Origin: Escherichia phage NHEP1
Sequence record: PQ511146.1
Length of the DNA stretch: 64,000 nt
Strand: one strand, 5' to 3'
Below, piece by piece: positions 19,971-24,098 of the stretch; position 1 is the stretch's first letter; each line of letters begins with the position of its first letter. The position numbers and the translations under genes are program-made. The notes beneath the pieces are model-generated. The model was not told where the DNA came from. It worked only from the letters and a program-made list of their open reading frames with translations, and did not search any database.

Positions 19971-20547
19971 ATCTGGTGAACGATTCCATACCTTAAGCAG
20001 TTAATATCATTACAGAGCGTTTAAAGGCGGCTTACAAGCAACTCTCTATTTCGAGCGTAGCGAGAACGCACGTCCGTTTTGACCCAAATCACCATACGCT
20101 CGGATTTTAACCAAACCCTCGCGGTGTTTCTGTTGACACATTACCGCTCCTGAAATATGCTTATAGCATCGACACGTTCCAGCCATATGTCGATAAAGTC
20201 TTATTTTTTAAACATGTTGCCGGAATACTCACGGGTGGAACATGACCAACACACATGCATCTACAGAAACATCTGGAGGAGTGAAAGAGGAAAACTTCAA
20301 TTCTGAGGATTCTCTATCTCCGTCCCAGGTGGATCCTGAGGCTGATGACCTAACGTGGGAGGATATCATAGCCATCTGGTTCTCTATTATGCCTGAGCAC
20401 GAAGAGTTCAGAGGTGGGAGACTATAAAGCACCGAGCCCACATAAGTTTATCATGCTAAAGCATGGCCTGAAGAGGCAAACGTGCATAATTCCATCGTAT
20501 TGGAACGTGTAAACCCTGTTCACACTCTCATTTCCAGAGGAGATTCC

Positions 20548-20763
20548 ATGAAAATAGAGATATTTGGTGGGGCTGACAACACTCGTGGCCTGATTTACCT
20601 TGAATTCGATGAATCATACCTGCCAGAGGTGTTAAATATAGATGCTGTTGCGGAAGCCCTTGATGTAGACCCTAAAGATCTCTACTCCCGTGCTGAGATT
20701 GATGGTTGGGAAGAGACTCTGAACATTGATTTCAGTGAAGTAGTAGATGAACCTTTGGACTGA
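20548..20763 (+). CDS. Small acidic hypothetical protein
   Basis: ATG 20548 after GAGGAG; 71 aa. Confidence 0.4.
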   Translation: MKIEIFGGADNTRGLIYLEFDESYLPEVLNIDAVAEALDVDPKDLYSRAEIDGWEETLNIDFSEVVDEPLD

Positions 20764-23270
20764 CACACAAGTCTGCTTTGCAGGTTTAGCTGCTCAGCTA
20801 AGGTTCTGGAGGCACCTATAACATCTTCCAACTAAATTTCCTACCAACACAGTTACTTACCTACCACACATGACTGTTTGCTTGTTTAGTGAGCAGTCAT
20901 CACTTGACATTCTTGCCTATCTTGATAAAATTAAGTTCTTCTCTTTTCTTTTACCGAGTAATTCGGGTTTTCTGTTCTCTTCGGTTTGAAGGGGTATGGA
21001 GATACACCTGAGTGAACAGGGTGAACAACCGAACCTTTAGCTATGGCATTAGCATGGCGAAGCGGACGGGTGACGAAAGAGGGGCCGGAGGACACCAGTC
21101 ACTGCCATATAGTATATGGGTGATAACCTGAAGAGTCTGAATAAGTGTTTAAGTACCAGTCAGAGGAAAAGGTGAATGGTAGCCGAAGGGGGAGGGGGGT
21201 TTCTTATATCTTTAATTTGTATACTTTATATACACTTGTAAACCAATTCAATTAGAATCTGTTTACCACACAAAGGGGATGGAGACAAATATCACCTATT
21301 AAACTTGAATTATTTATAGAAAATACCACAACACCCGTTAAGTCTTTGATTTTACACACAAATCTTACAAATATCCTACCTCCACATTTAACATACTTGT
21401 AACATATTCCATATCCTACCTGCCTGATCAATTTACTCCATCACATTCCCACATTTTCCCTGTCTGTACTACCCCACCCCCGCCGGGAGTCCCGTCATAT
21501 CTGGCTTTCCAGCAAATATCACACCAACAAATATCATCACCTGAAGAGGGTTTCATCCCATAATACCTGCCTTACCTGAAGAGCGCTTCATACACCACGT
21601 AAATTTTTTAATTGACCCCTCCCCGCCGCCAGAGAGGTTGGCTTTTCCCACACAGGCCTGAAGAGTCAGCCAGAAATATCTGAACAGGCAGTTATGTCCC
21701 GATTTTGTGCTTGTCCTACAGGAGTGCTGCCAGGCGGACGGAATGGGAATACTTCTCATTCTTATAATAATTCTCAAATATCGAGGCAGTGAGGCAAATT
21801 AATAGGCCAGGCCGTTCACACAGTGGCACAACATTTGCAATCTATCTTGTGTGGATGAATGAGAATACCTATCATTGTGAGAATGGTTATCATTACGGGC
21901 AATTTAACATAATACCCATTATGCGCACCACTGGCGATACATACAGGGATTGATAACATGGGTTACTGTTTACGCATATAACAATTATATTTCTTACTAT
22001 TTGTGTGGGATATAGTTAGCAACCAATAGATTAGATATTGACCTGCAGACTTCTGACCGTCCAGACGTCTAAACGCCCACACAACAAGGATTATACATAC
22101 ACTCCTGCATGTAACCAGGGCCGCAAAAATGCTACCATACCAGTTTGTAAATTTTTCATGCAGCACTTGACAAAGAGGAGAAAAACTTGTCTGACACAAT
22201 GTGACAATTTTGTCACTTTTGACACTTTTACCTTTGACACAATATGACACAATAACGGCTGTTACTATTCCATATCTCACTGTTTACGCCTGAATAGTTT
22301 ACGCAAAAACTGTTTACACAGAGATGATAAGCCATGCCATTCGTTTGCATGAAAACAATTAACAAGATAACAATTGACAAGCTAACAGCCAACAAGCTGA
22401 CAGTTAATAAGTTAATAAGTTATGACATAATATAAAAGCAGGGCAACTATTAGAAGATCTATAGTTGCCTTGCTTGTTATGTCATGATTAACTAAATACA
22501 AGGCAACTATGATCTGAATAATAGATTGCAGACAAACTATCACGGGGGTGATTGTTACTGCTTTTATATTATGTCGCGACTCCGTCGCGCCATGCCATTC
22601 GTTTGCATAGTTGCCTTATTGTTACAGGTAAAACAATTACATTATTAATTATTTCTTATCTTTCTCTTAGTCATCTAATGATTCCAGTCAGTATAGTAAT
22701 GTACAGTAAACATTAGACGACTAAATATTTCTCTGTGTATAATAACTTATCGTGACAATTTCGAACTGTTTACGAAAAATGTTGACACCTGAGCTGATTT
22801 ATGTTATGCAGTTTACACGAATAATTATTTTATGCAGGTATTGACTATTCCGTTATTCTGTGGTTGGAATAAATACTTTGCAGACTATAGAATGGCGTGC
22901 GTACGTGAATTCTGAGATCTGGCGGCTATAGTTATACTCGATTTTTCGCGTAGAACACGCTTTCGATGCTGTGTAAGTGTATGACTTATAAAGATTTTTA
23001 GTTGTTGACAAGATATTGGAGATGTGCATCAGGTTAAAATTTGTGCAATAGCGGCATTACGTGCACTTTTGGGAGAGAAAACGGGTAAAAATGGCCCTGC
23101 TACCACACAATGAAAGATTATGCAATAGTTATTTTCCATGTATATTTGTACAGTATGTGGGATTGATGGCTAGTCAATTATTCCACTTGCCAGGTAGGGC
23201 CGTTTATGGTAGGAGAAGAGCAGACAAAAAGAAAGGGGCCTTTAAGCCCCTTGATAATTCAGTTAAGAAA
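20764..23270. repeat. ORF-poor, repeat-dense non-coding zone at the convergence of plus and minus transcription blocks
   Basis: No convincing ORF of 100 aa or more; at least five short repeat families seen (see findings). Confidence 0.6.
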
Positions 23271-23690
23271 TTATAATGATTCGTATATTTCAAAAATCCG
23301 ATTTGCCAGGTCGTTACGGTAGCGGAATTTTTCATCGCGCTTGATCATTAAATCCTTATAGCCGTACTCTTTAAGCACTTCATTAACTTTATAGCGGCAT
23401 ACCTGCATATTATCTTGAGCGTCACCAATAAACTTGTTGCTGTGGTGCATTGCTTTAATTTCTTCTTCCAGGACCAGGGCAACTACCCGGACCGGATCAA
23501 GCTGATAGGCGGTAACATCTATGCGGCATTGTAGACGGCTTTTAACGTCTGCCACCGGATATACTGCAACCTCTTCCCCGTCAACATTGACAATAATTAG
23601 TTTACCATCGATTTCGAATCCTTTCGCCGCCGGACCGTGACAAAAAGCGTTATCAAAGCTATATGCCGGATTATCAGATTTAATGTTCAT
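23271..23690 (-). CDS. Hypothetical protein
   Basis: Track ORF 139 aa; ATG with AGAGG RBS. Confidence 0.5.
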   Translation of the reverse strand: MNIKSDNPAYSFDNAFCHGPAAKGFEIDGKLIIVNVDGEEVAVYPVADVKSRLQCRIDVTAYQLDPVRVVALVLEEEIKAMHHSNKFIGDAQDNMQVCRYKVNEVLKEYGYKDLMIKRDEKFRYRNDLANRIFEIYESL

Positions 23691-23834
23691 GGTGTTTTTA
23701 CCTCTTAGTTAATTTTCTTACAACTTCCCTTCAAAAAAGAATATAGCAAAACTGCCGATCCCTGTCAACAAGGGATAGCATAATTTTTATGTGATCAAGG
23801 GGCTTTATCGCCCCTGACCATGCAACCTGTTGTA

Positions 23835-24098
23835 TTATTTGTTGCTCATCCAGTTTTCCCAAGCTGCCTGATAATCTGCCTCACTACGGCGGATCTCTTC
23901 TTGTTCTTCAAGCCGGATCTCTTCTTCCAGGTACCCCAAGATGTCAGCCTTTTTAGTCTGGCGCAACATCCAATCGTCTTTTTTGCGAGTAAAGATCTTG
24001 TACGCTTTCTCGCAAACTTCTTTTTTGCTACCTTTTTGGACTTCAAGAATTCTGTAAGCCATGTACTGAACTAGTTTGAGCTGGTCAAGACGTTTCAT
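23835..24098 (-). CDS. Hypothetical protein
   Basis: Track ORF 87 aa; promoter and hairpin upstream. Confidence 0.45.
   Translation of the reverse strand: MKRLDQLKLVQYMAYRILEVQKGSKKEVCEKAYKIFTRKKDDWMLRQTKKADILGYLEEEIRLEEQEEIRRSEADYQAAWENWMSNK

Follow-up and report, generated by a model that had tools for sequence, protein, structure and literature searches.

What is the function of the cluster of short TGACA repeats at positions 22192-22253 of Escherichia phage NHEP1 (PQ511146.1): does it recruit a protein that controls replication or transcription, or does it belong to the end of the phage genome? We analysed this locus within a 64,000-nucleotide stretch of the record, referred to below as the window. 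A sequence-only reading had described the locus as an iteron-like TGACAC(AAT) cluster resembling a multi-site array for a DNA-binding protein, either a replication initiator or a repressor, and each of the elements it listed is present at the position it gave. Our comparisons place this array directly against the right edge of the direct terminal repeat (DTR) of V5-like phages and show that the two edges of that repeat are related by two-fold symmetry, both of which are established from published termini together with homology. On sequence grounds, we give an even chance to the reading that the array is a cis-acting genome-end or packaging element, combining a cut site with phased landing sites for the terminase, and is not an origin or an operator.

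A 2-kb query around the array matched 121 phage records, nearly all of them from Vequintavirus, a genus of E. coli myoviruses of the rV5 type with genomes of ~136 kb. ECP32 and ECP26 matched best, each with 97% identity.

The array and the terminal repeat

The array reads TGACACAATGTGACAATTTTGTCACTTTTGACACTTTTACCTTTGACACAATATGACACAAT and comprises, within 62 bp, six units that share a TGACA core (U1-U6):

22192-22200, + strand: U1, TGACACAAT
22202-22207, + strand: U2, (G)TGACAA, given here as TGACAA and overlapping GTGACA at 22201-22206
22211-22216: U3, an inverted unit, TGTCAC
22220-22225, + strand: U4, TGACAC
22235-22243, + strand: U5, TGACACAAT
22245-22253, + strand: U6, TGACACAAT

All three copies of TGACACAAT that the window holds on either strand lie inside the array. 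Their total is ordinary, as 6 of 100 shuffled sequences also reach three copies, and it is the clustering that is unusual. On the + strand, TGACA occurs five times in these 62 bp against 0.093 occurrences expected from its window-wide density (Poisson P = 5e-8, or ~1e-4 when corrected for ~2000 windows). The same holds for the four clustered copies of TGACAC (corrected P ~1e-5), a hexamer that is not enriched across the window as a whole, with 31 copies found and 33.7 expected. Tandem Repeats Finder resolved the locus into arrays of period 9 (22202-22240) and period 10 (22235-22254). The longer pattern TGACAYAWT has five sites in the 64 kb, four of which follow the right end of the DTR by no more than 240 bp.

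The window contains one copy of this terminal repeat:

21733-22191: single collapsed DTR copy, 459 bp, from GGCGGACGGAATGGG... to ...GAGAAAAACTTGTC

The repeat was placed by homology, using the read pile-ups and record ends of relatives; the homology to the window extends over the two edges. In EdH4, the two ends of the record are an exact 459-bp repeat that maps to 21733-22191, and the PhageTerm-derived DTR of LL12 (104966-105424) has the same edges as those obtained from EdH4, reading ...gctgcca|GGCGGACG on the left and ...AAAACTTGTC|tgacac on the right. Terminal redundancies of 458 bp have been reported for EdH4 and HdK5 (PMC6563267) and terminal repeats of 459 bp for Gotham (PMC7471380). 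In addition, the ECP2303 record ends with ...AAAACTTGTC and begins with TGACAC..., and both this record and that of EcoIv14a_Aya are linearised exactly at CTTGTC|TGACA. The DTR of V5-like phages is non-permuted and lies in non-coding DNA between convergent transcripts. Its right edge falls at 22191/22192, and the array begins immediately outside the repeat, at 22192, 0 bp from the edge.

When positions 22100-22340 were used as a BLAST query, relatives aligned with ~95% identity up to ~22205, beyond which many lost the alignment, and several GenBank records began or ended near the array. Both observations are accounted for by the published terminal repeats of V5-like phages. Descriptions of genome ends in this group differ: the rV5 genome paper called the genome circularly permuted and boxed the region as 'non-coding', never using the word 'repeat', and the announcements of bov10K2 and BpE1AUH describe circularly permuted or headful-packaged genomes, in contrast to the fixed 458-459-bp DTR of LL12, EdH4, HdK5 and Gotham. 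The start of the bov10K2 record coincides with the exact left DTR edge.

To compare the junction between phages, we assembled 23 genomes, consisting of the window, 20 GenBank phages and two IMG/VR contigs. A scan of IMG/VR with the DTR-end pattern returned only these two loci, and the relatives were therefore taken from GenBank phage records. The sequence ...AAAACTTGTC|TGACA[CT], that is CTTGTC followed by TGACA[CT], is kept in 23 of 23 genomes, such that a TGACA[CT]-initiated array stands at the junction in every one; the sequence-only reading had named lack of conservation in close relatives as its refutation, and this was not observed. Beyond this fixed start the arrays diverge widely. Among the 23 genomes there are 22 distinct arrays, ranging from 32 to 101 nt and containing two to six GACA units, together with decayed units (GCCAC, GATAC, TATAC, GGCAT) and an occasional inverted TGTCA. 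The number and order of units vary even between phages that are 90-97% identical.

Despite this variation, the 82 GACA units of the 23 genomes yield a common consensus, T-GACA-Y-A-w-T, with information beside the GACA core at positions -1 (T), +4 (Y) and +7 (T) amounting to 1.03, 1.02 and 1.23 bits, respectively. Of the 60 intervals between neighbouring units, 35 measure 9-11 bp and a further 12 measure 18-20 bp, corresponding to about one or two helical turns. The onset of variability is abrupt. Across 20 aligned relatives, the last 30 bp of the DTR have an identity of 0.99 to the window, which falls to 0.64, 0.35, 0.63 and 0.57 in the successive 30-bp blocks from 22192 to 22311, dips to 0.41-0.48 at 22372-22431 and exceeds 0.9 from 22432 onward. 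Judged from these alignments, the array is conserved as a motif and as a position, without alignable sequence.

An inverted motif at the repeat edges

At each boundary of the DTR (shown as ^), we took the eight bases that span it and compared the two sites on opposite strands, using the top strand for the left edge and the bottom strand for the right:

21728-21735, + strand: left DTR-edge motif, 5'-TGCCA^GGC
22189-22196, - strand: right DTR-edge motif, 5'-TGTCA^GAC, whose TGTCA pairs with the first TGACA of the array

Read on opposite strands in this way, the two edges of the window are identical at six of eight positions. Among random positions of the window that lie 459 bp apart, a match of at least 6/8 has an empirical frequency of 0.005 and one of at least 7/8 a frequency of 0.0006. 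The match is confined to register 0, with shifted registers giving at most 4/8 and a same-strand comparison at register 0 giving 2/8. Both motifs are stable among relatives: the left one is TGCCAGGC in 20 of 22, and the right one is TGTCAGAC without exception in the 21 relatives whose locus spans the site. A second genus provides a further case. For the Klebsiella Mydovirus KPP-1, a 514-bp DTR at 116316-116829 has been determined by coverage and PhageTerm (PMC9862379), and at the coordinates of that paper its edges read TGCTA^GAC and TGCTA^AAC, which are identical at seven of eight positions (P = 0.0006). Together, the edges follow the consensus 5'-TGYYA^RRC, in inverted orientation at the two ends of the repeat.

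Because the right edge motif lies on the bottom strand as TGTCA^GAC, the first TGACA of the array forms half of the putative cut site, and the first unit thereby adjoins the putative cleavage position of the terminase. The remaining units of the array lack the GAC context, their bottom strands reading TGTCA^CAT, ^AAA, ^AAG and ^TAT.

This arrangement suggests a way in which the ends could be made. The terminase would meet TGYYA^RRC at both edges in opposite orientations, and if it nicked the strands that carry the motif, both 3'-OH ends would point into the repeat. Inward 3'-OH ends are the geometry that strand-displacement synthesis needs in order to double a repeat present only once in a concatemer; the Watson model, proposed for T7, obtains terminal repeats in this way. 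The further TGACAYAAT-like units could be copies of the core that are not competent for cutting and act as phased landing sites for the terminase, probably for its small subunit, loading or holding the enzyme on the unique side, beside the edge to be cut. The variability of the array would then reflect the gain and loss of units by slippage among redundant sites, at an end that is nicked and primed in every cycle. In this specific form, with Vequintavirinae terminases recognising 5'-TGYYA^RRC inverted at the edges, the array serving as a phased loading platform incompetent for cutting and its hypervariability being a footprint of primer slippage, the proposal is a tentative one that we place on the doubtful side.

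By analogy, the closest counterpart of the TGACA array is in T7, the sequence of which we checked. T7 has a short exact terminal repeat as well (160 bp), and on the unique side of the left repeat it carries 12 CCTAAAG units with a 13-bp period (nt 175-340) that are likewise non-coding. The T7 arrays were reportedly named SRL and SRR by Dunn and Studier in 1983. The two systems also differ in several respects. The T7 array starts 15 bp from the repeat edge, to which its unit contributes no sequence, whereas the array described here starts at 0 bp and contributes its first unit to the edge. Units related to CCTAAAG also precede the right repeat of T7, whereas the left flank here holds another module. 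The period is 13 bp in T7 and ~10 bp here, and T7 is a podovirus with an unrelated genome.

Two further packaging systems offer functional analogies only. At lambda cos, cosN contains symmetric nick sites 12 bp apart that generate cohesive ends, and the adjacent cosB carries R sites (three conserved sites of 16 bp) that are bound by the small terminase gpNu1. The likeness lies in the combination of symmetric nick sites with a one-sided array of terminase sites at the end that stays bound to terminase. Here, however, the putative nicks would be 459 bp apart and DNA synthesis would be needed afterwards, and we found no sequence similarity between the array and lambda cos. At P1 pac, clusters of TGATC(A/G) hexamers flank the cleavage region of a headful system with imprecise cuts. 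P1 shares with the present locus the reiteration of short 6-bp motifs within ~60-160 bp at a site of terminase cleavage, but its hexamers lie on both sides of the cut and contain Dam sites that regulate cleavage, and neither feature is seen here.

Several observations weigh against the packaging reading. Close relatives have near-identical terminases and yet very different arrays, with two to six GACA units in 32-101 nt, and this tolerance argues that, taken singly, most units can be dispensed with. The edge motif also occurs in KPP-1, but no TGACA array follows the homologous DTR edge there, which indicates that an array is not required for forming ends of this kind across the subfamily. The edges of BME3, a Justusliebigvirus with an annotated DTR, do not show the inverted motif (1/8), and on present sequences the motif is thus supported within Vequintavirinae only; T7 edges also lack an inverted 8-mer (1/8). 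The identity of the nicked strand is an assumption of the model, and the termini are those of relatives, known from read pile-ups and record ends, and not of NHEP1 itself. To our knowledge, the function of the terminus-adjacent array of T7 has never been established.

Gene setting and alternative explanations

In annotated relatives the array falls in a gap of ~2.5 kb, equivalent to ~20770-23270 of the window, for which annotation is missing or inconsistent between records. A + strand gene block lies to the left of the gap and a - strand block to the right, with transcription converging on it. Both blocks consist of small hypothetical genes whose 3' ends face the array region, and terminator-like sites at 20954-20966 (+) and 23252-23233 (-) bracket the non-coding gap. 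Within it, positions 22001-23000 have the lowest guanine-plus-cytosine (GC) content of the window (0.358). On neither strand of 22150-22330 did a sigma-70 scan find a promoter-like hexamer pair, and this interval held no terminator-like site either. Searching 20000-24000 against Rfam at E-values up to 1 yielded no RNA family, and ARAGORN found neither a transfer RNA nor a transfer-messenger RNA in the window. No initiator or repressor gene adjoins the array, where the neighbouring genes both end; their proteins were not searched for Rep-like domains.

We considered whether the array might lie inside a small gene. Open reading frames (ORFs) of 105, 69 and 53 amino acids overlap the site, the A51.2 record annotates a coding sequence at this locus, and the ORF at 21963-22280 (-) is listed in one record as a putative membrane protein. 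The annotations nevertheless conflict with one another. The variable columns of the overlapping frames fall on codon positions 1, 2 and 3 in the numbers 17/18/11, 7/3/5 and 7/11/10, without the excess of third-position substitutions expected of a gene, and the differences in array length among relatives are not multiples of 3. By these sequence criteria the array region is non-coding, and we give the idea of a gene here virtually no credence. A role in transcription, with the units acting as -35-like (TTGACA) or extended -10-like (TGnCACAAT) elements that drive or titrate the host RNA polymerase, can draw on TTGACA at 22167-22172 and 22234-22239 and on the resemblance of TGACACAAT to TGnTATAAT. 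It is very improbable in view of the empty sigma-70 scan and of the hand-checked spacings of 13, 22 and 23 bp, none of which suits a promoter; moreover, the converging flanking genes leave no gene downstream to be transcribed, and no Rfam family matched. Separately, we examined a CRP-like reading of TGTGAcaattttGTCAC. The CRP consensus is TGTGA-N6-TCACA, to which the right half-site and the spacing do not fit, and in ECP32, the closest relative, the inverted repeat is broken; this candidate was rejected.

The sequence-only reading would make the array a set of binding sites for a repressor (operators) or for a replication initiator (iterons), perhaps as part of an origin. Direct repeats in non-coding, relatively AT-rich DNA would suit this proposal, as would a conserved 150-nt palindrome nearby (z = -7.35) whose arms begin with TGACATAAT and a second array, of CTGTTYACRC units; the rV5 paper, too, could not locate an origin. 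The iterons of lambda ori and P1 oriR are also direct repeats of one motif in non-coding DNA. However, iterons are usually 17-22 bp long and co-evolve tightly with their initiator, whereas the present units measure 9-11 bp, are degenerate and change in number and order between phages of 90-97% identity, are locked to a genome terminus and have no cognate initiator gene nearby. An origin would also leave unexplained both the zero-distance abutment to the DTR and the inverted edge motif, on both of which the packaging reading draws, along with the invariant junction, the unit consensus and spacing, the sharp conservation boundary, the distribution of the motif, the reiterated module at the left edge and the T7 precedent. 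Of what the sequence-only reading had proposed, the idea of a multi-site protein-binding array gains support from the shared core, the spacing of about one helical turn, the recurrence in every relative and the non-coding setting, whereas the assignment to an initiator or repressor sits poorly with this context and seems to us distinctly improbable. The main alternative, which we regard as unlikely though with a real share of the probability, is that only the first TGACA is functional, as part of the terminase cut site, and that the other units are neutral by-products, duplicated and deleted in tandem through slippage of primers or strands and end-stimulated recombination where the DNA end is nicked and extended in each generation. 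It would explain why 23 genomes hold 22 distinct arrays of 32-101 nt with many decayed units, why variability begins exactly at the DTR edge, why the left edge also has a module in one or two copies, and why KPP-1 makes the same type of end without an array. Common descent of the units could moreover mimic part of the signal in flanking positions and spacing. Against it stand the T at -1, the Y at +4 and the T at +7, which remain informative across lineages that cannot be aligned, and the spacing, which stays near one helical turn, with the proximal and distal units being the best conserved. The presence of two further, different arrays in the flank likewise suggests a region of protein binding more than a single slippage hotspot.

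The terminal repeat of V5-like phages has already been published for several phages. The literature searched contained no earlier account of the abutting array of V5-like phages, of its hypervariability or of the inverted edge motif, and none of the SRL/SRR arrays of T7. According to a 2026 review, the start and finish of packaging in phages with short DTRs are less understood than in cos or headful systems. The locus supplies a candidate cis element, made up of an edge motif at both repeat boundaries in two genera and an abutting phased array, for a large group of E. coli myoviruses that have been proposed for therapy and biocontrol. If the TGYYA^RRC reading is true, it would give the first sequence-level model of staggered nicks that duplicate the terminal repeat of a short-DTR myovirus. 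Many GenBank records of these phages are arbitrarily linearised or described as circularly permuted, and the invariant ...AAAACTTGTC|TGACA junction is a marker of the true genome end. The hypervariable array could in turn serve for strain typing.

Other repeats and related records

The sequences on either side of the DTR contain further repeats, which we list with the spacer that separates the first two arrays:

21720-21732, + strand: end of the left-flank module, AGGAGTGCTGCCA, abutting the left DTR edge
22254-22278, + strand: spacer separating array one from array two, AACGGCTGTTACTATTCCATATCTC, which can be recognised in about half of the relatives
22279-22320, + strand: second hypervariable array, ACTGTTTACRC units with a period of ~15 bp
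22354-22422: third hypervariable block, AACAATTAACAAGAT x2.3 (period 15) and AGTTAATA x2.6 (period 8)

On the unique side of the left edge, the window carries one copy of a ~35-bp module that ends in GGAGTGCTGCC (21690-21732). Several relatives (L001, L007, L010, L014 and L023) have two tandem copies of it. Given this variation in copy number and the variable array on the right, both DTR junctions are hotspots for the gain and loss of units. The left module differs from the TGACA units, meaning that the array unit is not present on both sides of the DTR. In KPP-1 (L024, 1460-1516), two copies of CACCATCTG at a distance of 30 bp flank the left DTR edge on its unique side; a short repeat thus again stands immediately outside a boundary of the DTR, here in a phage with no TGACA array on the right.

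To the right of the first array, the spacer pattern A[CT]AATAAC..TGTTA could be used as an alignment landmark in 14 of 20 compared relatives. The second array is hypervariable too: its copy number among relatives ranges from two to at least eight, with a long run in rV5, and KPP-1 has a single TTGACAGTTTACAC at a similar distance from its DTR. The motif CTGTTYACRC has four exact matches in the 64 kb against 0.42 expected, and units of this array also occur at 21966-21975, inside the DTR, and at 22765-22776. The second array is probably part of the same terminal cis-acting region. Another protein could bind to it, and as a candidate for iterons it may be preferable to the TGACAC cluster.

Further to the right, an imperfect palindrome of ~150 nt (22424-22575) is highly conserved. 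It lies ~170 bp beyond the array, has perfect arms of 18 nt and contains four elements of the CAAGGCAACTAT type, and its arms begin with TGACATAAT, the motif of the array. Folded as single-stranded DNA, it reaches -54.8 kcal/mol (z = -7.35). It is a candidate for an origin or a cruciform, or for a structured RNA. The palindrome is bracketed (22331-22608) by a perfect direct repeat of 20 nt, GCCATGCCATTCGTTTGCAT, with copies at 22331 and 22589. Reverse BLAST hits to EdH4 raised the possibility that this bracketed segment is inverted between the two phages; the palindromic content explains these hits, because the main alignment of the two runs collinear.

Left of the DTR, (A)CCTGAAGAG occurs three times, at 21123-21135, 21536-21548 and 21571-21583. 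Two of these are longer and run to ACCTGAAGAG(G/C)G(T/C)TTCAT; the minus strand of that sequence is ATGAA(A/G)C(C/G)CTCTTCAGGT. These extended copies could be paralogous starts (MKPSSG and MKRSSG) of tiny minus-strand ORFs, or a repeat of another kind.

Lastly, 18 GenBank records of the MG0656xx series are named 'Campylobacter phage' and are, over the region analysed here, 90-92% identical to E. coli V5-like phages. The one record of this series that we opened, A147, is flagged UNVERIFIED, and the host label looks like a labelling or contamination problem.

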